A DNA stretch of 58,431 bases from Gammaproteobacteria bacterium UBA2810 (GTDB taxonomy: Bacteria > Pseudomonadota > Gammaproteobacteria > Enterobacterales > Succinivibrionaceae): assembly GCA_002351705.1 (NCBI GenBank), contig DEHC01000009.1, forward strand, positions 1 to 58,431, given 5' to 3'. Shown in pieces: positions 677 through 51,297 of this stretch. How positions within the stretch are numbered: the first letter of the stretch is position 1; the number at the start of each line of letters is the position of its first letter. The notes beneath the pieces were generated by a model. It was not told the origin of the DNA. It saw only the letters and a list, made by a program, of their open reading frames with translations, and ran no database searches. The position numbers and the translations under genes are program-made.

Positions 677-747
677 ACAAATGAAACGCGCCCGCAGGTC
701 GTGTTGAACCGCGGGCGCCTGAAACTGCGGAAAACAAGCTTTTCAGA

Positions 748-824
748 TGGTGCATCCGGGAGGATTCGAACCTCTGACCAATCGGTTCGTAGCCGAGTAC
801 TCTATCCAGCTGAGCTACGGATGC
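748..824 (-). tRNA. tRNA-Arg (anticodon ACG), copy 2, identical to copy 1
   Basis: Exact repeat of the 77-nt tRNA sequence, 148 bp downstream of copy 1. Confidence 0.95.
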
Positions 825-835
825 ATCAATGAAAA

Positions 836-928
836 TGGCGGTGAGAGAGGGATTTGAACCCTCGATACGACTTTTGGTCGTATACTCCCTTAGCAGGGGA
901 GCGCCTTCGGCCTCTCGGCCATCTCACC
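836..928 (-). tRNA. tRNA-Ser (anticodon GCT), long variable arm
   Basis: The reverse complement reads GGTGAGATGGCCGAGAGGCCGAAGGCGCTCCCCTGCTAAGGGAGTATACGACCAAAAGTCGTATCGAGGGTTCAAATCCCTCTCTCACCGCCA. It is type II (93 nt), with anticodon loop CT-GCT-AA and a CCA end. Confidence 0.9.
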
Positions 929-15734: not shown

Positions 15735-15810
<76 letters not shown>

Positions 15811-30885: not shown

Positions 30886-31347
30886 ATGGCAGAAGCAGGC
30901 TCATCTCCGGCAAAAAAGACACCGACTATTGTTGATGCGGTTGAAAAGGCTTTCAGCAAAAACGGCATTGTCCTCGCAGACAGCAAAAAAGACGGTGACA
31001 GCGGCATGTTTGCCATCGGCTTCAGCGGATTTTTCGGAGGCAATCTCAGATATGTTGCCGCAGTGAGCAGCAGATCCGAGGCCGGCTACTCTGACTTTCA
31101 CATCAGGACTGCCGGACTCTTCAATGTCCCCGCGGGGAAGGAAGGGCAGGCAGTTAACCTCTGCAACAGCCTCAACCTCTCGCACGACTACGCGAGGTTT
31201 GCCCTGAGCGGCAGCGAGATTGTGATTTCGGCAGACACGTTTGTCAGCAGGGCGACCGCTCCCGATCTCTCGGTCGGCATGGTCATGATGATGAACGATA
31301 TCTGCAGGCAGGTCTATCCGGAGCTTGCGAGCCAGCTTAAGGCCTGA
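30886..31347 (+). CDS. YbjN-domain (putative sensory-transduction/T3SS-chaperone-like) protein
   Basis: Size about 150 aa and weak YbjN-like pattern. Low certainty. Confidence 0.4.
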   Translation: MAEAGSSPAKKTPTIVDAVEKAFSKNGIVLADSKKDGDSGMFAIGFSGFFGGNLRYVAAVSSRSEAGYSDFHIRTAGLFNVPAGKEGQAVNLCNSLNLSHDYARFALSGSEIVISADTFVSRATAPDLSVGMVMMMNDICRQVYPELASQLKA

Positions 31348-31540
31348 TTCTTCTGTCCGGGGCTCTTTCATGCATGGCCACGTTTTTTTTCAGGACCTCT
31401 GTCGCAGACATTGAGGCGTGAAAATGGCAAAGCAATTCTTCAGTCAATAAACATATGCCTCATATTACTGAGTCAAAAGACAGACTGCACTGCTGCGCCA
31501 TTTCAACTTACACTTTAACTTACTCCTTAACTTACTCCTT

Positions 31541-32149
31541 GTGTACCAGTTCAGAGGTTCCATGAATTCCCTATACGATGTACTGAAAGCCGTCCTGAAA
31601 AAAATAGATCGCAGCAGGGGATGTCCTGAGGCGCAGCAGCGCGGTCATGGCCAGACGGCTGACGGCACAGGAGCAGACCGTCCCGAACATGGTTCTGAAT
31701 CACTTAAATCAGACAGCAGTACTGCGTCTGAGCCTGTCCTTGTCAGGCCTGTTCCGGGCTCTGTTGTCTACTGCGATCTTGCCTTCGGCTTTGCCGAGCA
31801 TTCCGGGATCTATATTGGTGATAATCAGATAGTTGCCCTCGAGCATGACGGCAGGATTGTCTCCCGCTCGCCGGAGGGGTTCATGGAAGGCACCCCCGCG
31901 ACGCGCATCTATGTATCCTGCCGCGCTGGACGTGCTGTCGGAAGCGGGAAAGCTGCCGAAAGGGCTAGAAAGATGATCGGGTCCCGCAGGGACTACAACG
32001 TTCTGAGTGACAACTGCCATCAGTTCTGCGCCGGCTGTCTGCTCGGGAATTTCGAGAATTCCATAAATTTCCTCTCTATGCTGCAGATGGAGTGCAGAAT
32101 GGTTCTCGGAGCAGACTCCTGGGGAGTGTGGGATCTCGGGCATCGCTGA
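31541..32149 (+). CDS. LRAT-like NlpC/P60 superfamily protein (putative acyltransferase/phospholipase)
   Basis: H-box HSGIYIGDNQIVALEH and catalytic Cys motif NVLSDNCHQFCAGC. The alternative start is the ATG at 31562. Confidence 0.55.
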   Translation: MYQFRGSMNSLYDVLKAVLKKIDRSRGCPEAQQRGHGQTADGTGADRPEHGSESLKSDSSTASEPVLVRPVPGSVVYCDLAFGFAEHSGIYIGDNQIVALEHDGRIVSRSPEGFMEGTPATRIYVSCRAGRAVGSGKAAERARKMIGSRRDYNVLSDNCHQFCAGCLLGNFENSINFLSMLQMECRMVLGADSWGVWDLGHR

Positions 32150-32221
32150 CTCGCTCTTCTGCAGGCTGGTCAGCAGCCTGTTATCAGAATTAATCGTATT
32201 TCTTATCTGTGCACTCATTAA

Positions 32222-32275
32222 AATTTGGTGGAAAACGGCAAAATAGTCTGAAAATATTTGGTGGAAAACGGCAGA
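32222..32275. repeat. Two tandem copies of an atttggtggaaaacggca motif (period 34 bp) abutting the start of the truncated ATPase ORF
   Basis: aaatttggtggaaaacggcaaaa...atatttggtggaaaacggcagaaaa, read directly. Confidence 0.5.
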
Positions 32276-32875
32276 AAAGCCGGACAGATTCGGTGGCAGA
32301 CGGCCTCCTTTGAGCCCGTGGCTGTCATCCCCGGAGTGAGGCCCGGGCGTATTGAGCGTCTCATCCGTCTGATGCATGATTCAATGGCAGTTAATGCAGC
32401 TTACAGCTCTGAAGATCCTGGCGCCGGTCTGGCACTCACTAGTAATCCTTCACGCTTCAGGCTGCTTGCCGGTGATACAGGTCTCTTCTCCACGCTTGCA
32501 TTCAGGGATAAGGGAGTGGCGGAAAAACCAATCTACAGCGGAATTTTTAATGACAGGATGAACACCGCTATGGGCTTTGTCTACAAGAACGCCGCAGCAC
32601 AGATGCTGAGGTCATCAGGAAGGAGCCTTTTCTTCCACACAATACCGCACAGCGGCGGTAAGAAGCATTACAGCACGGACTTCATAATTTCTGATTCTGA
32701 CGGCATTTCACCGGTTGAGATGAGAATGTCAGGCTACCGCGCTCATGCCTCTCTCGATGCGTTCTGCCGGAAATTCAGGGGAAGGATCAGGAACCGCTGC
32801 ATCATCTCCGCAAGGGATCTGAGAGAGGAAGACGGCATCATCTTCATTTCTGTATACATGACTATGTTCCTCTGA
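32258..32875 (+). pseudogene. C-terminal fragment of an AAA-ATPase of the AAA_14/DUF4143 type (N-terminal ATPase domain absent)
   Basis: AGDTGLFSTL...GFVYKNAAAQML...FFHTIPHSGGKKHYSTDFIIS resemble the DUF4143 C-terminal region. Only about 70 aa lie upstream of it, with no Walker motifs. AT-rich context. Confidence 0.4.
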
Positions 32876-33109
32876 CGCAGTGAGATCTGGGCGCGCGAGC
32901 GGCCGGAGATGTCCTGCTATGACATCTGCCGCGTCATCATAATTTGATCACGGCACCTCCCGCGGCTATCATATCCGTTAAAGCATGTCATTCGCTGCCG
33001 CGGAAAAGCGGCAGTGCAGGACTGCTTTTTAACAGTGCCGGAGGCCTGAGCCTTCTGGCAGTGAGGCTTCTCCCCGCAGCATGCTGCAAACAGACAGACG
33101 AAAGCTCAT

Positions 33110-36100
33110 ATGACTAACGACAGGCTGAACGTTAAATTTGACTATCCGGAAATCCTCAACTACGCGCTGGTGCAGAGCCAGAAGACGGAGCCTGCATCGC
33201 TTGACATCAGCTCCTCAGAGGAGCTGCGCGATGTTGTCTTCACCGTAAGCGGGGAGGGCATCACGGAGGTCAGGACGCCGGTCAGCATGATTCCTGCGGG
33301 AAACACCGTGACCTTCAGGGACATCAGGATAACGCCTGATGCAGATCGCCTGCGCAAAGCCAGCGAAAGCGCGAGCGGGATGATTAGCCTCACGATCGTG
33401 CAGCACGCCGGGAGTGAGAAGCCAGAGACAGTGTTCAGGGAGGACTATCCGGTAAGGATTCTTGCCTTCAACGAATGGCCCGGCTGTCACGTGCATCCTG
33501 AGCTCATCGCCTCATTCGTCACTCCGAACGCGCCGGAGCTCTCCGCCATACAGGCGAGGGCCGGTGCAATACTCAAAAAGCTCACCGGCGACTCCGCCCT
33601 CGACGGCTACCAGACCCGGGACGCCAACCGCGTGAGGGCACAGGCTGCAGCGGTGTTTGACGCCCTCCGCGAGCAGGGCATCCTCTACTCCGTGCCGCCC
33701 GCGAGCTTTGAGCGCACCGGGCAGCGCATCCGCCTGGCGCCTGATGTGCTGAAGGAAAAGGTCGGCACCTGCGCCGATGCGAGCATCCTGATGGCATCGG
33801 TCTTGGAGTCCGTCGGCCTCCACCCGCTCATAATCACCGTCCCCGGGCATATGTTCATCGGCTGCTGGCTGGTTGACAAGTACAGCGCGCAGCCTGTTAC
33901 TGATGACGCCTCGTTCCTCCGCAGCAGGAGCGGCGACGGCGTCAACGAGCTGGTGCTGGTGAACGCCGTCTGCATCTGCTCTGATTCCGATTACTCGTTC
34001 GAGGACGCCGTTGCCGGCACGAAAAAGTACCTTTCCGATGACGCCGGCGAGACCGTCATCGTGGACGTGAAGCGCTGCCGTCTCGAGAGAGTGCTGCCGC
34101 TTCCCCTTGAGGGCGAGGCTCAGGAGAACGAGGGCGTGAGGCATGAGGCCGTGACAGACGGAGTCGAAAGCCACTACTCCATTGACGAGGATGATCTCAG
34201 CGATGAGAAAGGCAGCGACTACCGCCGCAGGATCTGGGAGCGGAAGCTCCTTGACCTCACACTGCGCAACAACCTCCTCAATATGCGCACCGGCAGGAAG
34301 GTGATGGCATTCATGCCCGGGAACGCCGGAAGGGTGGAGGACATCCTGCAGGCCGGCAGGGATCTCTCCATCCAGCCGAACCCGGAAAGCGGCAGCGATG
34401 AGCTTATCAGCGAAGGGCTGAAGCGCGGCAGCGTCTACTCGGAGCTCAAGGCGGAGGATCTGCAGCCCGAGCTCACCCATCTCTACCGCGAGAGCCGCAA
34501 CTCGCTGGACGAGAACGGCGCCAACACGCTCTTCATCGTGTTCGGCACGCTCAGGTGGTTTGAGACAGAGAAGAGCGTTGTGGCCCGCGAGGCCCCGCTC
34601 CTCCTCTTCCCCGTGCAGCTCATAAGGAAATCCGCCGGCACCTTTGTCCTCCGCGGGCGCGACGAGGACATGAACGTAAACACCACGCTCCTAGAGTACC
34701 TCCGGACCCAGTTCGGCGTGACCGTCAAGGGGCTCGGGGAGCTCCCGGCGGACGAGAGCGGCTATGACATCGACAGGATCCTCGCCACCATCCGCGCGCA
34801 GATCGCGGGACGCCCGCGCTGGGAGGTCAGGGACCGCTGCCTCCTCGGCCTTTTCTCGTTCAGCAAGTTCGTGATGTGGAACGACATCCACGAGAACTTC
34901 AGCCTCATCGCGAAAAACCCGATCATTGACGCGCTCGTTGCAAGGCGCACGCTCGGAGACGGCGGAAAGGAAGTTGACATCAGGAGCATTGATGAGCATG
35001 AGGAGCCCGGGGAGCTCTGCGTCCCGATAGAGGCCGACTCGTCGCAGCTCAGTGCAGTCGCCATGGCGGACGGCGGGCGCAGCTTCATCATGTACGGGCC
35101 TCCGGGCACCGGCAAGAGCCAGACCATCACGAACATCATCGCGAACGCGCTCTGCCATGACAAAAGGGTGCTCTTTGTCGCAGAGAAGGCAGCTGCCCTT
35201 GAGGTGGTGCAGAAGAGGCTTGAGCGCATCGGCATAGGCGCGTTCTGCCTTGAGCTCCACTCGAACAAGGCGACGCGCAGCCATATGCTCGGTCAGCTCC
35301 AGGAGGCGCTTGATGCCGGTCACCCGGCGGAGCCTGCAGAGTTTGAGGAGAAGTCAAGGGAGCTCTTTGAGGAGAGGCAGCACCTCCAGAAGTATATTGA
35401 CGCGCTGCACGCCAGGGGAAGCCGGGGACTCTCCGTGCATGACTGCATTGAGGGATACGAGCTGAGAGCTGGCAGCCCGCTCGGCATTGACCGTGCGTGC
35501 ATCACGGATTCGATGACGAAGGATGACATCACCGCGCTTGCGGGGAAGGTGAGCGGCCTTGAGTCGGTCTTCAGCGTTTCGGGCAATCCTGCGGACCATC
35601 CGCTGAGCGGTCTCATCGTGAAGGAGGAGTCCCTCTCTGCCTCTCAGAAGCTCAGCGAGGGACTCTCGAGGATATCAGGACCGCTCCCGGGCGCGGTTAA
35701 TGCTCTCGTAAGGTATGAGGAGCTCCTTCACCGTGAGGGCAGGGCCGCTTTTTCGGATCTTGAGGAGGCCTGCGTGAGCATCGGCACCTGGGAAAGCGCC
35801 GAGGATGAGAAGAGGAAGCTCCTCGCGACCTGGGCCCCGGAGGCTCTGGATCTGCAGCCGCTTGCGCTGAAGCAGGAGTGGGAGGGAGCAAAGGATTCCT
35901 TCATCCTGTTCAGGTATTTCAAAAAGAAATCGTTCATCAAAAAGACCCGGATCTACAACATGTCGCTCACCGCGGAGAATGCCGACGGCGAGATTGACGC
36001 GCTCCTCTCCTACAGCCGCATGAGGCGCGATATGCCGGAAGGCGCCGTGCGCGCGGGAGAGCTTTCGGCTGACGATAGGAATACCCTGAAGTCACTGCAG

Positions 36101-38269
36101 GAGGCCCTGCATGCCATGTCAGGCGTTGCGGAGATTGAGCTGCCGTCACTGAAGGACGCAGAGGCGAGGATGCAGTCCTGGCTCGGCAGCACGGGGAAGG
36201 CCCGCGACTGGGCCTACTGGTGCAGGGCGAGGAAGGAGCTCATGGATCTTCACATGGAGCCGGTCCTTAACGCTGTCATCGCGGACGGAGTCCCTCCCCG
36301 CGAGGCAGCAGAGCGGTTCCTCAGGGCCGTCTACCGCAATCTCGCCTCCGGGATGATCGACGCGGCGCCGGAGCTCAGGGAGTTCCGCGGACCGGTATTC
36401 GAGGAGAGCATCCGGAAGTACCGGAGCCTTGCGGAGGAGTTCAGGCTCCTCTCGCAGAAGGAGCTCTTCTGCCGTCTTGCAGCCAGGATCCCACAGAGGC
36501 TCAGCGAGCCGAGCGCCCAGTCCGAGATGGGGAAGCTCAGGCGCTACATTGCCTCAAAGGGCCGCGGCATGACCATCCGCCGCATCTTCGACGAGGTGCC
36601 CAACCTCATCAGCAGGCTCTGCCCCTGCATGCTGATGAGCCCGATTTCCGTGGCGCAGTTCCTGAGCCTTGAGCGGGAGCCCTTCGATCTCGTCATCTTC
36701 GATGAGGCGTCGCAGATGCCGACCTCCGAGGCGGTCGGCACCATTGCCCGCGGCAGGGCGCTTGTCGTGGCGGGGGACCCGAAGCAGATGCCGCCCACCA
36801 GCTTCTTCTCGTCTGACACCACGGACGAGAGCGAGTCTGACTATGACGACATGGAGAGCATCCTCGACGACTGCCGCACGCTCTCGATGGATGCGGCGCC
36901 CCTGCAGTGGCATTACCGCTCGAGGAGCGAGAGCCTCATTGCCTTCTCGAACCTCGAGTACTACGGAGGGAGCCTTTACACTTTCCCCTCGGTGAGGGAC
37001 CGTGTCTCGATGGTGCGCTACGTGCCGGTCGAGGGAACCTACGATTTCGGGCGGACAAGGAGCAACCGGGCCGAGGCTGACGCCATTGCGGACGAGGTCA
37101 TCCGCCGCTGGCGCGATCCGGTCCTCAGGAAGGACTCCATCGGCATCATCGCCTTCAGCAAGGCGCAGCAGAACCTCATTGACGACGTGCTCACGGAGCG
37201 CATCGCGGGCGATCCGGAGCTTGAGGCGATGGCATCGCAGGAGAACGAGGGGCTCTTCGTCAAGAACCTCGAGAACGTGCAGGGCGACGAGCGCGATGTC
37301 ATCCTCTTCTCCGTAGGCTACGGCCCTGACAGCCGGGGAAGGGTGTCGATGAACTTCGGGCCCCTCAACGGGAAGGGCGGCGAGAGGCGCCTCAACGTTG
37401 CGGTGAGCCGCGCGAGAAAGGAGATGGTGGTGTTCGCCATCCTGAGGCCCGAGCAGATAGACCTCACGAGGAGCAGCTCCCGCGGGGTCGAGGGCCTCAG
37501 GAGGTTCCTTGAGTTCGCGCGGAGCGGGCAGATTGCGCTCTCCGGCAGCCAGCTCGGGATTCATGCTGATAACGGCATTGCCGCTGCAGTGGCGGACGAG
37601 ATCCGCCGCATGGGCTACGCTGTGGACACCTCGGTCGGCCGCAGCAATTTCAGGGTGGACATCGCGGTGTCAGATCCGAAGGACCGCGACCGCTATATCC
37701 TCGGCATCCTCTGCGACGGCGAGGGCTACTACCGCACGAAGACCGAGCGCGACAGGGAAATTGTCCAGCCCTCGGTCCTCCGCGGCCTCGGCTGGCGGCT
37801 CATCCGTGTCTGGTCAGTTGACTGGTTCGTAAACAAGGAGAAGGAGCTCTCGCGGATCAGGGAGGCGCTCAGGGAGGCTGAGAGAGCGGGCGGTATGCCT
37901 GAGGAGCCCGCCGGGAAGACTGAGCCACTGCCGGCATCTCAGGAGACAGACCCGTCTCAGGAGGCTCCTGCCGCCGCGTCTCATGAAGGGAGCGGTGACA
38001 CAGGGAGCGCTCCGGCAGCTCCCGACTTCCGCCGCGCGCCGGGGCAGGGCATTGATGATATCCCCTCGGGGCAGATCGATGATGCCATCCTATTTGTCGT
38101 CTCGCAGTCAGTGTCGCTTCCTGAGCAGGATCTCAGGAAGAGCGCGGCGAAGGCTCTCGGGTTCGCGAGGACCGGCGCCCACATCGACCAGGTTCTCTCC
38201 GCCCATATCGGAGGCCTGGTGTGCGGAGGGAGGCTCCGGAGGCAGGACGAGAGCATCACCATGCCGTAG
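33110..38269 (+). CDS. 1719-aa multidomain protein: transglutaminase-like cysteine protease domain + DUF4011 + Upf1-like superfamily-1 helicase (AAA_11/AAA_12) + DUF559/REase-like PD-(D/E)xK nuclease + DUF3320
   Basis: TGase core VGTCADASILMASVLESVGLHPLIITVPGHMFIGCW (about 33760). DUF4011 hallmark RRRIWERKLLDLTLRNNLLNMR (about 34230). Walker A IMYGPPGTGKSQT (about 35090). Motif II VIFDEASQM (about 36700). GDPKQMPP, HYRSRSESLIAF, LNVAVSRARKEMVVF. Nuclease-like NFRVDIAVSDP...ILCDGEGYY...GWRLIRVWSVDW (37620-37830). Confidence 0.85.
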   Translation: MTNDRLNVKFDYPEILNYALVQSQKTEPASLDISSSEELRDVVFTVSGEGITEVRTPVSMIPAGNTVTFRDIRITPDADRLRKASESASGMISLTIVQHAGSEKPETVFREDYPVRILAFNEWPGCHVHPELIASFVTPNAPELSAIQARAGAILKKLTGDSALDGYQTRDANRVRAQAAAVFDALREQGILYSVPPASFERTGQRIRLAPDVLKEKVGTCADASILMASVLESVGLHPLIITVPGHMFIGCWLVDKYSAQPVTDDASFLRSRSGDGVNELVLVNAVCICSDSDYSFEDAVAGTKKYLSDDAGETVIVDVKRCRLERVLPLPLEGEAQENEGVRHEAVTDGVESHYSIDEDDLSDEKGSDYRRRIWERKLLDLTLRNNLLNMRTGRKVMAFMPGNAGRVEDILQAGRDLSIQPNPESGSDELISEGLKRGSVYSELKAEDLQPELTHLYRESRNSLDENGANTLFIVFGTLRWFETEKSVVAREAPLLLFPVQLIRKSAGTFVLRGRDEDMNVNTTLLEYLRTQFGVTVKGLGELPADESGYDIDRILATIRAQIAGRPRWEVRDRCLLGLFSFSKFVMWNDIHENFSLIAKNPIIDALVARRTLGDGGKEVDIRSIDEHEEPGELCVPIEADSSQLSAVAMADGGRSFIMYGPPGTGKSQTITNIIANALCHDKRVLFVAEKAAALEVVQKRLERIGIGAFCLELHSNKATRSHMLGQLQEALDAGHPAEPAEFEEKSRELFEERQHLQKYIDALHARGSRGLSVHDCIEGYELRAGSPLGIDRACITDSMTKDDITALAGKVSGLESVFSVSGNPADHPLSGLIVKEESLSASQKLSEGLSRISGPLPGAVNALVRYEELLHREGRAAFSDLEEACVSIGTWESAEDEKRKLLATWAPEALDLQPLALKQEWEGAKDSFILFRYFKKKSFIKKTRIYNMSLTAENADGEIDALLSYSRMRRDMPEGAVRAGELSADDRNTLKSLQEALHAMSGVAEIELPSLKDAEARMQSWLGSTGKARDWAYWCRARKELMDLHMEPVLNAVIADGVPPREAAERFLRAVYRNLASGMIDAAPELREFRGPVFEESIRKYRSLAEEFRLLSQKELFCRLAARIPQRLSEPSAQSEMGKLRRYIASKGRGMTIRRIFDEVPNLISRLCPCMLMSPISVAQFLSLEREPFDLVIFDEASQMPTSEAVGTIARGRALVVAGDPKQMPPTSFFSSDTTDESESDYDDMESILDDCRTLSMDAAPLQWHYRSRSESLIAFSNLEYYGGSLYTFPSVRDRVSMVRYVPVEGTYDFGRTRSNRAEADAIADEVIRRWRDPVLRKDSIGIIAFSKAQQNLIDDVLTERIAGDPELEAMASQENEGLFVKNLENVQGDERDVILFSVGYGPDSRGRVSMNFGPLNGKGGERRLNVAVSRARKEMVVFAILRPEQIDLTRSSSRGVEGLRRFLEFARSGQIALSGSQLGIHADNGIAAAVADEIRRMGYAVDTSVGRSNFRVDIAVSDPKDRDRYILGILCDGEGYYRTKTERDREIVQPSVLRGLGWRLIRVWSVDWFVNKEKELSRIREALREAERAGGMPEEPAGKTEPLPASQETDPSQEAPAAASHEGSGDTGSAPAAPDFRRAPGQGIDDIPSGQIDDAILFVVSQSVSLPEQDLRKSAAKALGFARTGAHIDQVLSAHIGGLVCGGRLRRQDESITMP

Positions 38270-38854
38270 CCGCTCACGGCGGGTTTCCTTATCTGTAGGA
38301 AATCTGCCATCTGACATGTGCGATATATGCTCAAAATCATTTGGGGCTTTCATGATTATTGTGTGGGAGCCCGCGGGGGATCTTCTCATAAGCAGTTGAT
38401 TCAGAAGGGGTATTTCCCTCGGGGCCCCTTTTCCCGGAAATGCGTATATTTTCTGCGCATTGCATTCAGCGTGGTTTCCCTTAGAATTACGGCGCCGGTA
38501 TTATTGGTCATTGACTGACCGGGCGGCACCGACGCCGCCGCGATTCCCAGGACGGGATTCAGGAGCATGATGCCCCGTGCCGGTTGCTTTTTGGCGATTG
38601 TCTTCATCTTTTTGCCCCGCAGGGGGCTATTTCCCCGCCTTTTCACGAGCCCGGTTCCTTTTCCGCTAACGGACCTTTGCATCAGGCTCTCTTCTGCCCT
38701 TCCGGACGATCTTGCCTCCTTCTGCCATTTTCCCGGGATGTGACGTTTTTTCATTCAGCATCAATTGAATTGTCGGATAATGGTGCATATTATTTAAAAG
38801 GGGACGTTCAGCAATCCGCCCTTTTTCAGCGCCTTCAATCCGTGGAGAAATCAA

Positions 38855-39919
38855 ATGGGATTCTTTTCATCATTCATCAAGCCGCAGCTGCCCGACGTAG
38901 TCGAATGGGATCAGATTGATCCGAAGCTGATTTTCTGGAGATGGCCTCATCAGGAAATCAAGAAGGGATCAAAGCTCATCATCCGTCCGGGACAGGACGC
39001 AGTGTTCCTTTTCAACGGCCAGATCGAGGGCGTGTTCACCAAGGACGGCAAGTACGATATTGACTCCGAGATTATCCCGTTCCTCTCGACCCTGAAGGGC
39101 TTCATGTACGGCTTTGACTCCGCGATGAGAGCCGAGGTCCTCTTTGTCAACACCAAGCAGCAGAGCGAGAGATGGGGCACCCAGACCCCTATAATGCTCT
39201 CCTGCCCGGGGCTCCCCGGCGGCCTTCCGGTAAGGGCGTTCGGCAACTTCGTGGTCAGGCCCGGCGACTATCCGCTCCTCATCGAGAACATCGCGGGAGT
39301 CTCGGAGCAGTTCTCCGTGGAGGATGTGAGGGAGCGTATGCGCATGAGCCTTGCACCGCTCCTCATCGAGGCTGTGTCAAAGAGCGGCCAGAACGTGCTT
39401 GATCTGCAGGGCCATGTCTCCGAGCTCGGCGCGATGGTCGGCAAGGCCATGAACGAGCAGATGATGAAGATCGGCCTCAATATCGTCGAGTTCAATATCG
39501 CCAGCTTCTCCTATCCTGATGAGGTCAGGAGGATGCAGGAGAAGGCCGCAGGGCAGGCCATGGTCGGCGATCTCGGCAGGTACCAGGGCATCGCCGTCGC
39601 TGACGGCTTCTCGAATCCCGGTTCCCCTGCCGGCATGACGGCTGCCGCCATGATGGGCATGAACATGGGCGCCGGGATGGGCATGGGCTTCGGCGGTATG
39701 TACGGCGGCGCTGCAGGGGCTGCCGGCGCGGCCGGTGCCTCGCAGCGGCAGAACGCTGCCCCCGGGACCGGAGTGCAGCCTGCGGGGGCTGCCGGCGCCC
39801 AGGGCGGCGCGCAGTCCTCCGGGCCCCAGGGCGGCAGCGGCCCCAATTTCTGTCCGAACTGCGGCGCGAAGGTGAGCGGCTCCAAATTCTGCCCCAACTG
39901 CGGAGCGAAGCTCGTCTGA
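38855..39919 (+). CDS. SPFH/Band-7 (Band_7_1-like) domain protein with Gly/Ala/Met-rich linker and C-terminal double zinc ribbon
   Basis: GFFSSFIKPQLPDVVEWDQ...LIIRPGQDAVFLFNGQIEGVF N-terminus typical of the SPFH Band_7_1 family. C-terminal FCPNCGAKVSGSKFCPNCGAKLV. GGAG SD. Confidence 0.7.
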   Translation: MGFFSSFIKPQLPDVVEWDQIDPKLIFWRWPHQEIKKGSKLIIRPGQDAVFLFNGQIEGVFTKDGKYDIDSEIIPFLSTLKGFMYGFDSAMRAEVLFVNTKQQSERWGTQTPIMLSCPGLPGGLPVRAFGNFVVRPGDYPLLIENIAGVSEQFSVEDVRERMRMSLAPLLIEAVSKSGQNVLDLQGHVSELGAMVGKAMNEQMMKIGLNIVEFNIASFSYPDEVRRMQEKAAGQAMVGDLGRYQGIAVADGFSNPGSPAGMTAAAMMGMNMGAGMGMGFGGMYGGAAGAAGAAGASQRQNAAPGTGVQPAGAAGAQGGAQSSGPQGGSGPNFCPNCGAKVSGSKFCPNCGAKLV

Positions 39920-40011: not shown

Positions 40012-41022
40012 CTAGAACAGCGCGTTGATGAATCCCATGATGAAGCCGAGCCCCGCGCCGAACCAGACCACGGCACTGAGCTCCTTCTTCATGACTCCGA
40101 GGAGGACCTGCTCCGCCTCGTCAATATCCATCTCGTTGATGCGGTTCTCGATGACCCTGCTCAGGTTGAAGGCCTGAAGCATCGCCGGAAGCTTCTCCGT
40201 CACAAGGTGGCGGTACGCCCCGATGAGGCTCTCCGTCACCTTCTGCAGCAGCTCCTCCTTTCCGGCGAGGAGCGCGCTTACCTGCTTCCCCATGAGCTTC
40301 TCTGACTCGCTCTCTGCCATGCCGCCCACGATATCTGCGGCATTCTTCTCCATGATTTCCCGGATATTCTCCGAGAGCAGCTCCCTCAGCGGATCACGGA
40401 GCGATTCGATGATGCTGTCCGTGATCTCGCCGGCCTTTCCGCCGAGAACGCTGTTGATCGCCCTGCCGATGAGGCCGCCGACCGCCTCGGTCAGGCGGCC
40501 GCTGATGGCCTTGAGGAGCTCTCCCTTGTCGCGGAGCTTCACGATGATCTGATCCGCGGCAATGCCGGCGATGCGATCCCCCATTTCGGGATCCCTGAGC
40601 TTCTCCGAGGCAAGAGAGGTGAAGCCGTTGCGGATGCTGCCGGAGGCAGCGGCAATCTCCTCCCCGCTGAAATAGTGACCGAGGAATTCCCCGAGCGTCT
40701 CGTCATTATGGCGCTGCCGGTCGAGGTATTTCTCAATGGCGGAGCGGAGCTTCCCGATCATCTCATCGGAGAGCAGGTTCTTCCCGAGGACCTCACCGCT
40801 GATGAGGTTCTCGCTGACAGCCTTTCCGACCTCCCTGGCAATCCTGCCTCGCTCCTTCGGGATGATGCCCGGCGTGAAAGGGATGTGGAAGCCCTTTATG
40901 TACCACGCCCTGTGCGGCCTGAAGAGCATGCGCACTGCGATGTCGTTCGTGATGTAGCCTATGAGTGCGCCGATTGCGGGGCCGGCGACAAGCCTGTATT
41001 CAGCAAGCAGTTCAATTGTCAT
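40012..41022 (-). CDS. DUF445 family membrane protein
   Basis: IGALIGYITNDIAVRMLFRPHRAWYIKGFHIPFTPGIIPK N-terminal signature and a C-terminal TM segment. True start is the ATG at 41022 with GGAGG SD (the ORF track starts at 41220). Confidence 0.7.
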   Translation of the reverse strand: MTIELLAEYRLVAGPAIGALIGYITNDIAVRMLFRPHRAWYIKGFHIPFTPGIIPKERGRIAREVGKAVSENLISGEVLGKNLLSDEMIGKLRSAIEKYLDRQRHNDETLGEFLGHYFSGEEIAAASGSIRNGFTSLASEKLRDPEMGDRIAGIAADQIIVKLRDKGELLKAISGRLTEAVGGLIGRAINSVLGGKAGEITDSIIESLRDPLRELLSENIREIMEKNAADIVGGMAESESEKLMGKQVSALLAGKEELLQKVTESLIGAYRHLVTEKLPAMLQAFNLSRVIENRINEMDIDEAEQVLLGVMKKELSAVVWFGAGLGFIMGFINALF

Positions 41023-41275
41023 GTTGCGGATCCTCCCGGAGAGGCAGATGCTGATTAGGATGCTCTCCCTTCTCTTCGCATTATAATGTACGGGATATGA
41101 AGTGACACAAAACAACAGATTCAAGGTCAGGAATACGCGCCTCCCGTCACGGCATCCAAAGGTTGCATGCAGGTCCCTGATCCCCGATAATTTCCCTGTC
41201 CGGCATTGCTCTGCCGGCATTTTGTCCCCGGTCTCTCAGTCCGGGGCCGCTTTTTACAGTCCTGGAAGATTCATC

Positions 41276-42484
41276 ATGAAAAGCTTTGAGTGCAGCAGCT
41301 GCGGCGGGTTCATGGAATGGGATCCGGAGAGGCAGTGCCTTTCCTGCCCGAACTGCGGCAGCAGCGTTCCGGTCATGCGCGACGTGCCGCAGCTTCCCGT
41401 TCCGTTTGAATGGGGGACAGTCCCTCCCGAGATAGGGAAGCTCTCGGAGTTCTCTGACAGCCCGGTCATCTGCCCGTCGTGCCACGCCGACATCAGGCCG
41501 AGGGAGGAGACGGTCTCCATGCTCTGCCCGTACTGCGGCACCGCGCTGGTCTTCGACGAGAAGCAGAGCTTTTACCTTACCCCGAACGGGGTCGTCCCCG
41601 AGGCGATCTCGCTCAGGCAGGCAATGAAGTCGGTCGAGAAATGGAGCAGGACTCATTTCTTCGCTCCCACAGTATTCCCGAAGCTCATCGAGAAGAAGTT
41701 CATCAGGAACTGCTATGTCCCGTTCTGGGTGTTCTCCGCCAATATCGCATATTCCTTCGAGGGCGTCGGATCTACGTTCTCAGAGCGGGCTGCCGGGCTC
41801 TCCGGCACCAGTTCCTATCTCGCGAGAAAGCACAGGCGCGAGCAGAAGAGCGAGCACCAGTGCTCGGGACGGAACAGATTCACCGCAAGCGATGTCAGGA
41901 TCTGCGCCTCTTCGAAGCTGAGCAGGGCAGCATCCGATGCCATCTCGGCAGTCTCCTACGGAAAAGTCTGCGACTACCGGCCGGAATACCTCGCGGGGCG
42001 CATTGTGGATCTGGGCAACATCGGCATCGAGACCGGAATGAAGCAGGCTGAGGCGCGGATGAGGGAAATGGCGGAGATCCACGCGAAGGCCATGATAATG
42101 AGCCACGGCTACACCTCGGTCAGGATCACCTCGTTCAGCATCAAGATCTCAGATGCCTCCTACAGCCAGATCCTGATCCCCTGCTACCGGATCATCTACC
42201 GCTACGCCGGAAAGCTCTATTCGGTGGTGGTGAACGGCGAGAACGGCAGGGCAATAGGAGACTATCCGCTCTCGGTCATGAAGGCGGTGATAATCCCGTT
42301 CGTGCTCTGCATGCTCCTCGCCGTGTTCCTCTGCAAGGTACTGGATGTGTCGGTCGGGAGCGCGGGCGCCTTCGGCCTTGTTCTTAGCATAACGTTTTCC
42401 GCAGCGGCCTATGTTCTTTCCTCAATAAGGAAGAAGGCCAACATCAGGGATCACGGCAGGATCTTCTTCAGGACAGATGACTGA
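41276..42484 (+). CDS. Double-zinc-ribbon membrane-anchored protein, divergent member (paralog 1) of the five-gene family in this window
   Basis: MKSFECSSCGGFMEWD...CPNCG / CPSCHADI...CPYCGTALVFDEKQSFYLTPNGVVP, then VPFWVF, PEYLAG, IIYRYAGKLYSVVVNGENGRAIGDYP, C-terminal TM helices. Collinear with the ORFs at 47280-52530. Confidence 0.7.
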   Translation: MKSFECSSCGGFMEWDPERQCLSCPNCGSSVPVMRDVPQLPVPFEWGTVPPEIGKLSEFSDSPVICPSCHADIRPREETVSMLCPYCGTALVFDEKQSFYLTPNGVVPEAISLRQAMKSVEKWSRTHFFAPTVFPKLIEKKFIRNCYVPFWVFSANIAYSFEGVGSTFSERAAGLSGTSSYLARKHRREQKSEHQCSGRNRFTASDVRICASSKLSRAASDAISAVSYGKVCDYRPEYLAGRIVDLGNIGIETGMKQAEARMREMAEIHAKAMIMSHGYTSVRITSFSIKISDASYSQILIPCYRIIYRYAGKLYSVVVNGENGRAIGDYPLSVMKAVIIPFVLCMLLAVFLCKVLDVSVGSAGAFGLVLSITFSAAAYVLSSIRKKANIRDHGRIFFRTDD

Positions 42485-42579
42485 GTACACCCGTGTTGAT
42501 GTGGTGGGCCTGCGCTCTGCCTCAGGCAGAATCCGCTGAATGAGTGTCCGCAGCGGCGGACGATTCTGCGTTATCCGTA

Positions 42580-42610
42580 AAATTGTCCATTAGCAGTGGA
42601 CAATTTTTCA
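42580..42610. terminator. Bidirectional terminator (8-bp inverted repeat attgtcca/tggacaat flanked by an A-run and a T-run)
   Basis: aaaattgtcca-ttagcag-tggacaattttt, between convergent genes. Confidence 0.5.
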
Positions 42611-42746
42611 TGATTTTCGCTGACTTTCTGAATGGTGCTTTTAATACAGTGTGCTGTTTTTGCAAATGATTTTAATCAAAACAGCCTTCTGAAACTACGA
42701 AAGTCCATGAAAAAAACTAACATGGATTTTGCAGCTCCAGGTGTTT

Positions 42747-43115
42747 TTACTGCTTGTTTTCAGGGAGCAGTGCAGCCTGCCATTCTGCCTCCTTGAACCC
42801 GACCAGCACAGTACTGTCTGTAACGAAGATAGGCCTCTTCACGAGCATTCCGTCCGTTGAGAGAATTGAGAGCATCTCGTCAGGAGTCATGGTGCCTACC
42901 TTTTTCGAGAGGCCCATTTCACGGTAGAGCTTTCCGCTCGTGTTGAAGAACTTCCTCAGATCCTTGCCGCTGAGGCTGCTCCAGGCTTTGAGCTCATCTG
43001 CGCTCGGTTTCTGATCGGCAATAGGCCTGACCTGGTATTCAACATGGTGATCATCAAGCCATTTGATGGCCTTCTTGCAGGTCGTGCATCTGCTGTAGCA
43101 GAGACATGTGTTCAT
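42747..43115 (-). CDS. ArsC/Spx/YffB-family thioredoxin-fold protein
   Basis: MNTCLCYSRCTTCKKAIKWLDDHHVEYQVRPI CxxC N-terminus. 122 aa. True start is the ATG at 43115 with AGGAGA SD. Confidence 0.7.
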   Translation of the reverse strand: MNTCLCYSRCTTCKKAIKWLDDHHVEYQVRPIADQKPSADELKAWSSLSGKDLRKFFNTSGKLYREMGLSKKVGTMTPDEMLSILSTDGMLVKRPIFVTDSTVLVGFKEAEWQAALLPENKQ

Positions 43116-43443
43116 TATTCTCTCCTTTGCCCGGAGATGTCCGGGCAGACTGTTCATGCGGCATACGTACCGATTATATCCGTCTCCTGCATGTCCTGAC
43201 TGAGGAGAGCCATGCAGAAACAATGCCTTAAATACCGGACCGGGGGACTGTCTGCACGAGTCTCTGAATAGTAAACACACTCCATCCGGACATGCCTGCG
43301 GCAGAACGCCTGATGTAATGATCCTGATCGTGGTGATCCGGCGCCTGTTATTCTGAAAGCAGAGCGCAAGCCGACGGATAAAGAAGCGCCGCGCTTATTT
43401 ACAGAGCGGCGCTTCGTCCGTTTTTTGCTGCCTCGTTGATCGT

Positions 43444-44385
43444 TCAGATATTGAATGCACCGAACAATTCCTGACGGTATGCTTTGTCAGTAATGATTCT
43501 GGAAATATCATCATTCCTGTTCTGTGAGGTCAGGATCTGTATGAGTTTAGCGAAACGCTCCTCACCGCGATCCTCGCCGATTTTTATCCCGCGTTCCATG
43601 CCGCGCTCTTCTCCGCGATCCTCAGCATCCTTTATATCTGAGCGGTAATCCATACGGGCTATCTCGTTATTAATGTAGTTCATGCGCTCCTCCCTGCTGC
43701 TGAAAAATTCATCGCATGCGTCATATGCCTTGCTTATTACATCATCGCACATTGCGAGCTCCTGTTTCCGTTTCTTCCGGCGGAAAGCGAAAAAACCCAT
43801 CCAGCGCTCAATCCTCGTCATTTCGCTGGCAGGCTTGTTTCTCGCTGCCTTCAGGAATTTCCGGAGCTCAAGAAAGTGGAATCTGAGATTTTTGCCGAAA
43901 CTCTCGTAAGGATCGTCGTCCCATCTGATACTGCAGGACGAATGCACGATTGCTTTCTTGCGAATGCTGAAAGCGAGGATGTTGATCGTGATGGCAGGGC
44001 TAGCTTCCAGATAGTCCTCTCCGGCATGCAGGCCTGTGGAATACATATATGTCCAGTAGGCAAGCGTGCGCTTATCCATGTTGTGCCGGCTGGCAACCTG
44101 CGCCTCGACATCAATGAGCTCTCCGGTATCGAGCCTGCACGCGACATCAAAGCGCGGTGCCTTGTCCGCCTTGTTATAGGGGATCTGCTCCGTCGGCCTG
44201 AACTCGATGTCGTTGATCCTGTGCCCGAGCGACTCGCTGAGCACTGAGTTCAGGAAATCTACTGTGAAGTGCTTGCGCTCCTCCTTTCCGAATACAAACT
44301 TGAACAGCAGGTCGTCCATCGTATTGATGTGCTGGTTCTCGATCTTTGTCTGAATTATGCTTCTGATTTTCTTTTCGTCCTGCAT
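43444..44385 (-). CDS. Rpn/YhgA-family PD-(D/E)xK recombination-promoting nuclease / putative transposase
   Basis: DDLLFKFVFG...FLNSVL...IEFRPTEQ...DVACRLDTGELIDVEAQ nuclease core. C-terminal DAEDRGEERGMERGIKIGEDRGEERFAKLIQ repeats typical of the family. AT-rich gene. Confidence 0.6.
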   Translation of the reverse strand: MQDEKKIRSIIQTKIENQHINTMDDLLFKFVFGKEERKHFTVDFLNSVLSESLGHRINDIEFRPTEQIPYNKADKAPRFDVACRLDTGELIDVEAQVASRHNMDKRTLAYWTYMYSTGLHAGEDYLEASPAITINILAFSIRKKAIVHSSCSIRWDDDPYESFGKNLRFHFLELRKFLKAARNKPASEMTRIERWMGFFAFRRKKRKQELAMCDDVISKAYDACDEFFSSREERMNYINNEIARMDYRSDIKDAEDRGEERGMERGIKIGEDRGEERFAKLIQILTSQNRNDDISRIITDKAYRQELFGAFNI

Positions 44386-44777
44386 GATCTGCCCTGCCTT
44401 CCGTATCTTTATTTCTGCAGTCTCTCTTGTTTAATCCGCACGCGCTCTTTAAGCCTGAGCCGCCCGTGCTTTTCTTCTCTGCAGACAATGATATCCGGCA
44501 GCTGGCAGCCAGGCAAATTTTATTGGCTGCTTATCAGTCATAACAGATCATGCAAATGATATTTTTATCAGAATCCGGCCATAAGCCGGGCTGAGGCCAG
44601 ATCCCCGGGGCTTGGCATTAACAGGCCTCAAAAGCCCTTACAATTGATGCCGGAATTCTGTATCATAGCGTGCATAGGCGGGGCGCTCGCCCGGCCGCAA
44701 CCCAATCAAAGCGCCTGATGGCATTCATTTCAATTCACTAAGTCCCGGATCCGGGCAAGCCATCCTCCCGTGCCGCT

Positions 44778-45953
44778 TTGGTTCCCCAAGGATTCCCTGT
44801 GAGCCAGCAGATTTTCCAGTACCTCAGGAAGCGTCCTGCTTTCCGTACTGCCATGTTCTTTGTCACTGTTCTCTGCATTGCAGTAGTTCTCATCATGCTC
44901 GGCCGCCGTGCCGATGCGGTCACCGAGGCGAGGCGCTTCAAGGGAGGCGTCCTGACAGCAGATGAGGTCGCCTGCGCCTTTGAGGGCGTGGGCGGAAAGC
45001 TCATCTCGAAGAAGGTTTCCGAGGGGGACAGGGTGAAGAAAGGGCAGCTTCTGATGGTCATCGATGACCGCGACCTTCAGAATACGGTTGCTGACCTCAG
45101 GGCGTCAGCCGCGCAGCTTGACGCAGAGATTAAGAAGCAGGAGCTCGATCTCAAAAATGCCCGGGACAAAGTGCGCACCACTGAGATATCACAGTGGCGC
45201 CAGATAGAGTCTCTCGAGTCAAGGCTCCGCGGCAGCAGCGAGGAGCTCTCCCAGGCAAAGGCCGAGTACAGGCGCTACTCATCCCTTGTGGAGGTATCCG
45301 CGGCCTCAAGGAGCGCCTATGACAAGGCCCGCGCCGTAAGCGCCCAGGCCGAGGCTGCTCACACCGCTGCATTCAAGAGCCTCCAGGAGCTGACTGTCGG
45401 CGCCTCTCCCCGCCAGATGAAAAGGCTCCACGACACCGGAAGCGCCGATGGCATGACGCTGAGCGCCATCACCCAGATGCGCACTGACTGCGACAGCATG
45501 GAGCAGGCCCTTCATGCGCTCGAGGCCTCTCGGAATGCCGTGCAGGCAAGGCTAGAGCAGCAGCTCCTCAATCTCTCAAGGACGAAGCTCTACGCGCCAT
45601 GCGACGGAACAGTGCTTGACACCTACTTCGAGGAGGGCGAGATCATCCCCGCGTCAGCCGCTGCGCTCAACCTCGAGACCGACCGCCGCTACTATGACGT
45701 CTACCTTTCGGAGCGCACAGTCGCCCGCTACAGGAAGGGCAGCGCAGTGACCGGCATGGCCCCGGCGCTCGGTCGTGAGGTGAAGGGCATCGCGCGCTCT
45801 GTAAACGCGGCGCCTGCATTCGCTGACCTCCGCATGACGCGCGAGCAGGGGCAGGCTGATCTCACCTCATTCAGGCTCCGTGTTGACGTCACTGACGCGC
45901 CTGAGGAGCTCAGGACCGGCATGACCGTGGAGATCGCAGATGAAAGCGATTAA
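44778..45953 (+). CDS. HlyD-family membrane fusion (periplasmic adaptor) protein
   Basis: Single N-terminal TM. Biotinyl-lipoyl-like VSEGDRVKKGQLLMVIDDRDL. Long coiled-coil, then a beta-barrel tail. Start uncertain (TTG 44778 or ATG 44853). Confidence 0.7.
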   Translation: MVPQGFPVSQQIFQYLRKRPAFRTAMFFVTVLCIAVVLIMLGRRADAVTEARRFKGGVLTADEVACAFEGVGGKLISKKVSEGDRVKKGQLLMVIDDRDLQNTVADLRASAAQLDAEIKKQELDLKNARDKVRTTEISQWRQIESLESRLRGSSEELSQAKAEYRRYSSLVEVSAASRSAYDKARAVSAQAEAAHTAAFKSLQELTVGASPRQMKRLHDTGSADGMTLSAITQMRTDCDSMEQALHALEASRNAVQARLEQQLLNLSRTKLYAPCDGTVLDTYFEEGEIIPASAAALNLETDRRYYDVYLSERTVARYRKGSAVTGMAPALGREVKGIARSVNAAPAFADLRMTREQGQADLTSFRLRVDVTDAPEELRTGMTVEIADESD

Positions 45954-47279: not shown

Positions 47280-48521
47280 ATGAAACTTTACAGCTGCCAT
47301 GCCTGCGGCGGATCCATGGAGTGGGACGGACAGTCAGGCGGACTGAAGTGCAAGAACTGCGGCACGACGGTAAAGGTCGAGGATACCGAGGCGCTCGGCT
47401 ATCACCCCTACGAGACGCTGCCGGAGTTCATGAGCCTCCAGGACTACCCGGAGAAAGTCATCCAGTGCCCGGGCTGCGGGGCCGAGATCAAGGCTGACGC
47501 CAAGACTGTCTCCATGGGCTGCCCTTACTGCGGGGCAAGCCTCGTCCTTGACGAGAAGCAGCTCTCGTTTGCGAAGCCGGACGGCGTTGCTCCCGTAATG
47601 ATCTCCGGCGACAGGGTGAGGCAGCTTGTGAAGGAGTGGTGCGGCAGGCACATGTTCGCGCCCAATCTCGCGTCCAAGCACCTTGAGGTCAAGTTCGTCT
47701 CCCCGCAGTACATCCCGTTCTGGGTGTTCAGGGCCCATGTAAGGGGAGAGTATTCCGGCCGCGGCGGAAAGGACAGGACTGTCACCAGGAAGAATGATGA
47801 CGGCACAACCGTCACCAGGACCGTCACCGACTGGTATCCTATCCACGGCACCGTAAGCGATGATCTCGAGAACTTCGGCGTGTCGGCCGATGAGAACATC
47901 AATAAGGAATATGCAGACTTTCTTTTTGACTCAACGCCTGATGACGCCTTTGCCGAGTGGAAGCCGGAGTATTTCGCCGGAAGCTACTCCTTCATCCCGA
48001 CCGTTCCCGTGGAGGATGCCGAGGAGCAGGCCAAGGATGACATGAAGAGCGAGCTCGAGAGCCGCACCGAGTCAGACCTCAGGAGAGAGTACGATCATGT
48101 CGAGTTCAGCTCGTTTGATGCTGAGTACAGCGACATGGCCTGGCTCCTCGATCAGATCCCGGGGTATTTCGTAATCTGCCGCTACCACGGCGGGATCTAT
48201 GTTGACGCGGTGAACGGCGTTACCGGTGAGATTCACGGAACCTACCCGGTCTCCTTCCTCAAGGTCGCCATAGCCTTCATCCTCGCGGCCGCCGCCGCGT
48301 TCGCCGCCTTCGCCTTCTTCGTCCCGGAGAGCGTCAGCGTCTGCACCAATGAGAGCTGCCGCTTCAGCTGGGGAGTCTTCGGCACGTCGGCCGCCATCTT
48401 CGGGGTCATAGCGCTCATCGTCTATGTCTGCATCCATCTCTGGCTGAAGGGCAAGATCATCGGCAGGGACGAGCTGCAGAAGGATCCTTGGCTTAAGGAA
48501 ATCATGGAGAAGATCAAATAG
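47280..48521 (+). CDS. Double-zinc-ribbon membrane-anchored protein, tandem paralog 2
   Basis: MKLYSCHACGGSMEWDG...CKNCG; CPGCGAEIKADAKTVSMGCPYCGASL; QYIPFWVF; YSGRGG; KPEYFAGS; QIPGYFVICRYHGGIYVDAVNGVTGEI; 2 TM; tail GRDELQKDPWLKEIMEKIK. Confidence 0.75.
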   Translation: MKLYSCHACGGSMEWDGQSGGLKCKNCGTTVKVEDTEALGYHPYETLPEFMSLQDYPEKVIQCPGCGAEIKADAKTVSMGCPYCGASLVLDEKQLSFAKPDGVAPVMISGDRVRQLVKEWCGRHMFAPNLASKHLEVKFVSPQYIPFWVFRAHVRGEYSGRGGKDRTVTRKNDDGTTVTRTVTDWYPIHGTVSDDLENFGVSADENINKEYADFLFDSTPDDAFAEWKPEYFAGSYSFIPTVPVEDAEEQAKDDMKSELESRTESDLRREYDHVEFSSFDAEYSDMAWLLDQIPGYFVICRYHGGIYVDAVNGVTGEIHGTYPVSFLKVAIAFILAAAAAFAAFAFFVPESVSVCTNESCRFSWGVFGTSAAIFGVIALIVYVCIHLWLKGKIIGRDELQKDPWLKEIMEKIK

Positions 48522-48615
48522 CGCATCACGGAATTATGAACCGGCGCGGCAGATTGATGCTGCGCATGGTTCCGCGTGATGCCGATCCTGCCGTCAGGAC
48601 TCAAGGAGAATTTCT

Positions 48616-49895: not shown

Positions 49896-50006
49896 CGAGC
49901 CGCATCCTGTTTCCGGCTGTCATGGCGCCGCTCCCGGCAGCCACCGTGTTCCAGACATCCAGTCATGCTGTCCGCAATCAGGGACTTTCAAACCGGAGGA
50001 ACCTTC

Positions 50007-51221: not shown

Positions 51222-51297
51222 CAGCCGCCATGCGGCGCGGTATGGGGGAATGGCAGGGGTATTCATTCCACAGATGCCTGATCCTGAGGGGGATTTT

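Follow-up and report, generated by a model that had tools for sequence, protein, structure and literature searches.

We examined a gene from Gammaproteobacteria bacterium UBA2810, on contig DEHC01000009.1 of assembly GCA_002351705.1; the window of this analysis is a stretch of 58,431 nucleotides. By its matches to family models, the gene (33110..38269, plus strand) is a shortened member of the catalogued ProA family in a rumen proteobacterium, and its architecture is not new. We think it likely that it encodes a single-polypeptide anti-phage enzyme: a ProA-family protein of the DUF4011 helicase-nuclease kind, related to Hhe, with a mechanism that we infer by analogy. An earlier sequence-only reading of this DNA had proposed a candidate nucleic-acid defence enzyme of 1719 amino acids at 33110-38269. 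These coordinates are exact, and a motif search found all of the motifs that it quoted, each at its expected place in the protein. The proposed defence role is supported too, and was already catalogued.

First, the protein passes the cut-off of the NCBIfam equivalog model NF058533.1, "anti-phage protein ProA" (1680.5 bits versus a cut-off of 1500, E = 0), and each region of the protein matches this model when scanned separately. The model (length 1903) has the same domain order as the protein: a transglutaminase-like domain at positions 2-343, DUF4011 at 363-648, and then a split superfamily 1 (SF1) helicase with an insertion, a nuclease of the MTES_1575 type, and a C-terminal domain. Relative to the model, the protein is short by about 180 residues, and its helicase insertion is also shorter. 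Second, the protein matches PDC-S37 from PADLOC (1071.4 bits, E = 0, model positions 13-1456), which is a single-gene phage defence candidate (model PDLC05009, length 1550) and has no curated cut-off. Scanned as separate regions, the protein covers positions 13-288, 713-894, and 1237-1456 of PDC-S37, with matches in its DUF4011 region, its helicase, its nuclease, and its C-terminal region. As annotation, the family assignment adds little, since "anti-phage protein ProA" is the name that automatic annotation with the current NCBI models would give.

The features of the gene, all on the plus strand, are as follows.
33110..38269, plus strand: coding sequence of the ProA-family protein (1719 amino acids, stop codon included), based on the open reading frame (ORF) list, the family models, and the ratio of nonsynonymous to synonymous substitution rates (dN/dS)
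33110..33460, plus strand: N-terminal beta-sandwich domain (residues 1-117)
33482..34114, plus strand: transglutaminase-like (papain-fold) core (residues ~125-335)
33770-33772, 33848-33850, and 33902-33907, plus strand: invariant core residues Cys221, His247, and Asp265/Asp266, respectively
34235..35029, plus strand: DUF4011 region (residues 376-640; Pfam match at 379-531, 1.6e-38)
35030..35389, plus strand: first part of RecA1 of the SF1 helicase (residues 641-760; AAA_11, AAA_30, and AAA_19 matches)
35096-35125, plus strand: Walker A motif GPPGTGKSQT (residues 663-672)
35390..36559, plus strand: large insertion in RecA1 (residues 761-1150), the most variable ordered part
36560..37459, plus strand: second part of RecA1, and RecA2 (residues 1151-1450; AAA_12 at 1260-1442; Sen1/Upf1-like matches to solved structures)
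36701-36715, plus strand: DEASQ (residues 1198-1202)
36773-36796, plus strand: GDPKQMPP (residues 1222-1229)
36911-36922, plus strand: HYRS (residues 1268-1271)
37280-37297, plus strand: QGDERD
37397-37417, plus strand: VAVSRAR (residues 1430-1436)
37586..37870, plus strand: PD-(D/E)xK nuclease of the MTES_1575/DUF559/Vsr type (residues 1493-1587; PF18741, 4.1e-27)
37880..38041, plus strand: low-complexity linker rich in Pro, Ala, and Glu (residues 1591-1644), from the homologue alignment
38042..38266, plus strand: conserved C-terminal domain of about 75 residues (residues 1645-1719), from BLAST and the alignment

The protein begins with a head that resembles transglutaminases. We modeled the structure of residues 1-375 using 44 homologues, and the model (predicted local distance difference test, or pLDDT, of 89; predicted template modeling score, or pTM, of 0.84) has a beta-sandwich at residues 1-117 and an alpha/beta core at 125-335. 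The best Foldseek matches in the Protein Data Bank (PDB) are animal transglutaminases (E = 3.6e-5), with the same sandwich-then-core order. As in papain-fold enzymes, the model places C221, within GTCAD (residues 219-223), at the start of a helix, and H247, within GHMFIGCW (residues 246-253), at the start of a strand. The alignment of the 44 sequences shows no variation at these two residues or at D265 and D266, and across 120 homologues all four are at least 95% conserved. The Pfam model Transglut_core (PF01841) has a threshold of 23 bits, which the protein does not reach (15.2 bits for the whole protein and 18.1 bits for the isolated domain). Despite the subthreshold score, a transglutaminase-like fold with Cys-His-Asp is supported by the structure model, the Foldseek matches, and the invariant triad, as the sequence-only reading had proposed from the Cys-His motifs. 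Other enzymes with a transglutaminase-like or papain fold include PNGase, LapG, TglA, BDI_1141, and the animal transglutaminases; the head's similarity to them is below the Pfam threshold and, unlike them, it is fused to a helicase-nuclease.

The head had also been described as an unusual extra, absent from the architecture of related defence proteins. This holds for the models of Hhe and PDC-S37: the PDC-S37 model begins at DUF4011, and in separate-region scans, the N-terminal 375 residues had no match to any PADLOC model or to Hhe. It does not hold for the ProA family, whose model covers the head (residues 18-362 align to model positions 2-343, with 279.9 bits). Of the 120 best homologues, 119 have the head, and it precedes DUF4011 and the helicase. 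When we searched exhaustively with only the head as the query, matches were found in 4390 representatives of 50% clusters, including 773 at E <= 1e-30; among the best 149 matches, DUF4011 and the helicase follow the head in every protein of sufficient length, and the full set of domains through the nuclease is present in 92. By these comparisons, the transglutaminase-like head is what separates ProA from Hhe and PDC-S37, and it belongs to the known definition of ProA. It is a constant domain, with its catalytic residues intact, in a very large family.

The middle of the protein comprises the DUF4011-type region and the SF1 Upf1-like helicase, and both assignments in the sequence-only reading were confirmed by domain searches. 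The RRRIWERKLL... motif of the DUF4011 region is at residues 372-392, and the fold of this region has no relative in the PDB. The helicase has Pfam matches to AAA_11 (residues 643-710) and AAA_12. A sequence search of the PDB returned helicase cores and nothing else, all from the Upf1 group (IGHMBP2, Sen1, and Nam7/Upf1), with the IGHMBP2 and Nam7 matches at residues 633-722. The motifs in the second part of RecA1 and in RecA2 are more than 95% conserved among homologues. The large insertion in RecA1 is only partly covered by the ProA and PDC-S37 models. It is also variable between close relatives: the closest genome, a rumen metagenome-assembled genome (MAG) named "uncultured proteobacterium RUG347," has an 86%-identical ProA orthologue at the same locus, and the insertion is 74% identical between the two proteins (dN of 0.17), versus 90-95% for the motor domains.

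The nuclease that follows was also correctly read as a PD-(D/E)xK domain of the Vsr/DUF559 kind. It matches nearly all of the Pfam model REase_MTES_1575 (PF18741; 94.5 bits versus a gathering threshold of 38.2; model positions 4-96 of 96). The conserved residues are D1517, D1536, R1547-D1548-R1549-E1550, and Q1553, and the motifs are DIAVSDP (1517-1523), CDGEGYY (1535-1541), and GWRLIRVWSVDW (1561-1572). Leaving aside the N-terminal domain, conservation across the 120 homologues reaches 95% or more at 360 positions, which include those of every helicase and nuclease motif. Overall, the protein has three putative catalytic centres, namely the Cys-His-Asp triad in the head, the Walker A/B and arginine-finger motifs in the SF1 helicase, and the acidic residues in the Vsr-type nuclease, and all three are intact and nearly invariant across the family.

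Since the nearest solved helicase cores (IGHMBP2, Sen1, and Nam7/Upf1) are RNA or RNA/DNA helicases, we considered whether the protein might act on RNA, either in RNA surveillance or in the decay of phage transcripts. The PADLOC matches also include MkoA and MkoC, which are Mokosh helicases of the same type. However, PF18741 is of the Vsr/DUF559/restriction-endonuclease type, which is a DNA endonuclease fold, and Upf1-like SF1 motors include DNA enzymes such as Dna2. The phage triggers of Hhe, described below, also map to DNA metabolism genes. We consider an RNA target to be very unlikely.

At the C terminus, this protein differs from longer members of the family, and the sequence-only reading, which had assigned a DUF3320 tail here, was mistaken. 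When we isolated the tail (residues 1590-1719), Pfam's DUF3320 (PF11784; gathering threshold of 25 bits) had no match at E <= 1. In two homologues, PF11784 does match (P0071 at residues 1681-1714, with 32.9 bits, and P0092 at 1777-1815, with 29.8 bits). These matches fall in a segment of about 130 residues that is present in P0071, P0078, P0007, and P0092, and absent from the present protein, which has the low-complexity linker in its place. The linker is 54% identical to that of the RUG347 orthologue (dN of 0.33). After the linker, the C-terminal domain of about 75 residues matches the C termini of 103 of 120 homologues by BLAST and has no Pfam match. It is possibly a diverged DUF3320-like repeat: its alignment to the DUF3320 segment by hhalign is weak (35% probability, E = 4e-4, 36 columns). 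Homologues from Prevotella, such as P0009 (1730 amino acids) and P0015 (1763 amino acids), have the same short C-terminal form, likewise with a short low-complexity linker where the longer homologues have the segment.

The missing DUF3320-containing segment, and the truncated accessory gene next door (see below), raise the question of whether the gene is itself a decaying, inactive remnant. But the ORF, from the ATG at 33110 to the stop codon at 38267-38269, is uninterrupted for 1719 codons, and all of the catalytic motifs are intact. Relative to RUG347, the gene has dN of 0.087 and dS of 0.53, for a dN/dS of 0.16. By this ratio the gene is under purifying selection, with the helicase insertion and the linker as its loosest parts. 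The same short form is also found in many Prevotella homologues. The intact ORF, the conserved motifs, and the dN/dS effectively refute decay, to which we give almost no credence.

To consider how the protein might act, we compared it to known defence systems. Hhe is reportedly from Gao et al. 2020. Hhe and the present protein both combine DUF4011, an SF1 helicase, and a Vsr-type nuclease within one polypeptide; the order is shared, and these parts have strong local similarity. The PADLOC model for Hhe (PDLC02194) matches at 4.6e-150. The NCBIfam model (NF042953.1, titled "DUF4011 domain-containing anti-phage protein Hhe") gives 723.9 bits, which fails its cut-off of 2000. The Hhe models do not match the head or the C-terminal tail of the present protein, and the match to the helicase insertion is marginal (E = 8e-4).

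The sequence-only reading had likened the protein to Nhi instead, and this was not supported: the closest systems are ProA, PDC-S37, and Hhe, and no Nhi model was among the PADLOC matches at E <= 0.1, although the presence of an Nhi model in the PADLOC set is unconfirmed. Nhi reportedly lacks both DUF4011 and a transglutaminase-like domain, and its nuclease is said to be N-terminal to its helicase. It is a single-gene system from Staphylococcus with a nuclease and an SF1 helicase, which nicks and unwinds phage DNA and is thought to be triggered via the phage single-stranded DNA-binding protein (PMC12904381). Nhi appears to be a functional analogue, with the same concept, from a different family.

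Hhe is encoded by one gene, whose product has helicase and nuclease domains; genes for DNA metabolism from phage T7 behave as its triggers, and one gene from Bas63 was toxic only if Hhe was present (bioRxiv 10.1101/2024.10.10.617714). If the present protein works like Hhe and the Upf1/Dna2-like SF1 motors, its module of DUF4011 and helicase would load on foreign nucleic acid during infection, most likely on intermediates of phage DNA replication or recombination, and would translocate with ATP. The C-terminal Vsr-type nuclease would then nick or cleave the bound nucleic acid, which would block phage replication and might also be costly to the host. A binding role, to nucleic acid or protein, is probable for the helical domain at the C terminus.

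Because its catalytic triad is kept, the head is most likely catalytic, acting as a cysteine protease or amidase, and it might have a sensing or regulatory role, such as processing ProA itself or a phage protein. The transglutaminase-like fold has a noncatalytic version in Rad4/XPC, and a passive DNA-binding role of this kind seems less likely for the head of ProA. More speculatively, the head might provide a third enzymatic activity (as a protease, an amidase, or a cross-linker) that acts on a phage protein or on ProA, and thereby couple sensing or activation at the protein level to the helicase-nuclease. We view this as a tentative proposal that could well be wrong. If it is true, then the short form would be a natural minimal version for dissecting the role of the head.

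We then considered the locus. The main features around the gene are as follows.
Upstream neighbours: mutL, miaA, a major facilitator superfamily (MFS) transporter, and flavin reductase
32258-32875, plus strand: C-terminal third (about 190 residues) of a PDC-S01-like AAA_14-type ATPase (PADLOC, 1.2e-17)
32944..32972, plus strand: sigma-70-like promoter match TTGATC-17-TATCAT (weak; a consensus match only)
38262..38282, plus strand: terminator-like hairpin that overlaps the stop codon of ProA (a pattern match only)
38855-39919: SPFH (Band_7_1)/zinc-ribbon gene
Downstream neighbours: the Band_7_1/zinc-ribbon gene, DUF445, a multi-zinc-ribbon protein, ArsC, a PDDEXK_2 gene, and resistance-nodulation-division (RND)/ABC2 transport genes

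With its own promoter-like and terminator-like sites, the ProA gene looks like a monocistronic unit. Both sites are pattern matches, and the region had four promoter-like consensus matches versus 1.5 expected.

Although the adjoining SPFH/zinc-ribbon gene is indeed present, the suggested defence-island context was not borne out. In a defence island, we would expect several defence systems or mobility genes within about 10 kb, and we found only the truncated PDC-S01-like ORF at 32258-32875. Except for this ORF, the neighbours of ProA, including the SPFH gene, have no defence match in PADLOC or NCBIfam, and neither an integrase nor a tRNA flanks ProA in the window. Directly upstream of ProA, the PDC-S01-like gene seems to be an accessory gene or defence candidate in decay: in sister lineages, it is nearly full length and is interrupted in frame, giving products of 364 and 90 amino acids (L003 4627-6012; L015 4703-6037).

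The ProA gene was at this locus in every related contig sampled. It is present in all 24 of the long contigs that have an identical DUF445 neighbour. When we searched for loci via the Band7 gene, four lineages had ProA immediately upstream (identities of 99.8, 85.7, 82, and 82.8%). ProA is also at the same locus in lineages L003, L015, L018, L019, L026, and L029. Its dS relative to RUG347 is close to that of the neighbouring gene hyp153 (0.53 versus 0.47), so ProA looks to have been vertically inherited since these lineages split. We also considered whether ProA evolves faster than its flanks, as its 86% identity, versus 93-99.8% for the flanks, might suggest. We rejected this because the dS of ProA matches that of hyp153; it is the dS of around 0 for the DUF445 and zinc-ribbon genes that is anomalous. 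The composition of ProA is also host-like: its GC content is 62.8%, and its GC content at third codon positions (GC3) is 82%, compared to 76-81% in its neighbours.

These observations raise the possibility that ProA is a housekeeping enzyme: a helicase-nuclease for genome maintenance, acting on stalled forks, R-loops, or mismatches, that is kept as a core gene in this clade. Besides its presence in every related contig examined, its apparent vertical inheritance, and its GC3, mutL and miaA are about 7 kb upstream, and a large DUF4011 gene was reported to be core in P. aeruginosa, being found in every isolate (PMC10250203). A repair role is the only alternative with real support, which comes from the fixation in the clade and from the core gene in P. 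aeruginosa. However, the family is curated as anti-phage by NCBI and is a defence candidate in PADLOC, and we found no ProA near more distant homologues of the Band7 gene (45-49% identical). The distribution of the family, described next, is patchy and mobile, which is unlike that of a housekeeping enzyme. Weighing these together, we consider a housekeeping role to be unlikely. The sequence-only reading had placed the gene in an accessory region. Its presence in all of the related contigs sampled instead makes it look core, as far as this narrow clade goes. A clade can thus carry a defence-type gene as a fixed, vertically inherited gene with no classical defence island around it, which argues for caution in using accessory status as a test for defence.

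Across bacteria, the ProA family is mobile and patchy. We found homologues in 556 plasmid records, from Klebsiella, Ralstonia, Acinetobacter, Rhizobium, and other genera, and 220 of these are on conjugative plasmids. Some copies are flanked by insertion sequences: a Klebsiella plasmid copy is alone between IS1 and IS3 elements. (When we used this Klebsiella homologue as a DNA probe against E. coli genomes, neither megablast nor blastn found a match.) The contexts of the homologues are unrelated across taxa, including those in Bacteroides and Paracoccus. There is no defence-named or conserved partner gene in the window or in the Klebsiella, Bacteroides, or Paracoccus contexts, and the ProA gene appears to act as a single-gene system.

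The nearest relatives outside the clade are in another phylum: they are proteins from rumen Prevotella (also at loci L004 and L006), which are 45-46% identical and have the same short C terminus. The plasmid copies from proteobacteria (H1-H25) are just 35-39% identical. This pattern is suggestive of a long-past transfer in the rumen, between Bacteroidota and a rumen proteobacterium. Rumen Proteobacteria and Prevotella thus appear to share the ProA family by cross-phylum transfer, and the short form, which would have lost one DUF3320-type repeat, appears to be what was passed between them.

Given how many homologues are on plasmids, the main targets of ProA might be plasmids or other mobile elements, or ProA might serve in the competition between mobile elements, rather than acting against lytic phages. 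The family is also almost absent from phage genomes, with just one full-length homologue, which is unannotated, among 50,697 records. On the other hand, the gene in the window is chromosomal and has no adjacent mobility genes, and the curated name is anti-phage; the two roles can also coexist. We consider it quite unlikely that ProA is primarily an anti-plasmid system.

Several other points weigh against the identification of this gene as an anti-phage enzyme. The match to the ProA model stops at position 1825, so that the last 78 or so positions (about 1826-1903) are unmatched, and the DUF3320-containing segment of longer family members is absent here. A literature search found no paper describing ProA: the name itself led to the gene of proline biosynthesis or to words with no connection. 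What supports the anti-phage label is therefore the name and curation of the NCBI family, along with the candidate status in PADLOC. The gene is fixed at its locus in all of the related contigs sampled, which represent a narrow clade, and its GC3 and codons are host-like. Finally, the surroundings are only weakly defence-like, with no clear defence island. We still favor an anti-phage role.

The stretch upstream of ProA appears to be variable. Sister lineages have about 3 kb of additional sequence (L003 1108-4049 and L015 1234-3617, corresponding to 31347-31709 in the window), which encodes a HATPase_c_4 protein (280-289 amino acids) and a 478-amino-acid protein without a family match. Because this sequence is absent from the window, we describe the stretch upstream of ProA as prone to insertions and deletions and of lower GC content (0.53-0.56). 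Within it, a metagenome gene caller chose a minus-strand ORF of 222 amino acids at 31709-32377, which we rejected because the substitutions fall at third positions of the plus frame. Relative to L003, the plus-frame third positions of 31541-32149 have 50 substitutions, versus 25 and 17 at the other positions, which indicates that the real gene is the plus-strand ORF of 202 amino acids at 31541-32149. Its product is 87% identical to a protein from L015 that has a faint match to LRAT (NlpC/P60-like).

Downstream, between ProA and Band7, there is a convergent ORF on the minus strand (38401-38754) that has 50-62% identity in sister lineages and no family match. Other contigs from this species have it in truncated form or with a different gene call, and it may not be a real gene. 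Farther downstream, a PDDEXK_2 gene (43444-44385, minus strand, 6e-46), annotated as a "nuclease family transposase" (Rpn-like), lies within the part of the window with the lowest GC content (0.51-0.52, in the region 42000-45000). Sister lineages have about 2 kb of additional sequence beside this gene, between the zinc-ribbon gene and ArsC.

The tRNA genes of the window include a cluster at 600-928 (minus strand), with two tandem tRNA-Arg(ACG) genes that have equal Rfam scores and a tRNA-Ser(GCT), and a tRNA-Gly(GCC) at 15735-15810; none of these adjoin the ProA locus.

The divergent pair formed by the DUF445 gene (40012-41220, minus strand) and the multi-zinc-ribbon gene (41102-42484, plus strand) shows a mosaic pattern. 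Its DNA is nearly the same as in RUG347: dS for this pair is 0-0.01, while the flanking genes have dS of 0.17-0.53. Conversely, in L026, these two genes are only 70-73% identical, and their flanks are 90-97% identical. This suggests allelic exchange, a recent transfer of the pair, or an artefact of MAG assembly. The multi-zinc-ribbon protein (460 amino acids) also has about four more paralogues at 47280-52332 (plus strand), which are 30-37% identical to it; one of them is split. Together, these paralogues make up a tandem family that lies on the downstream side of the RND/ABC2 genes.

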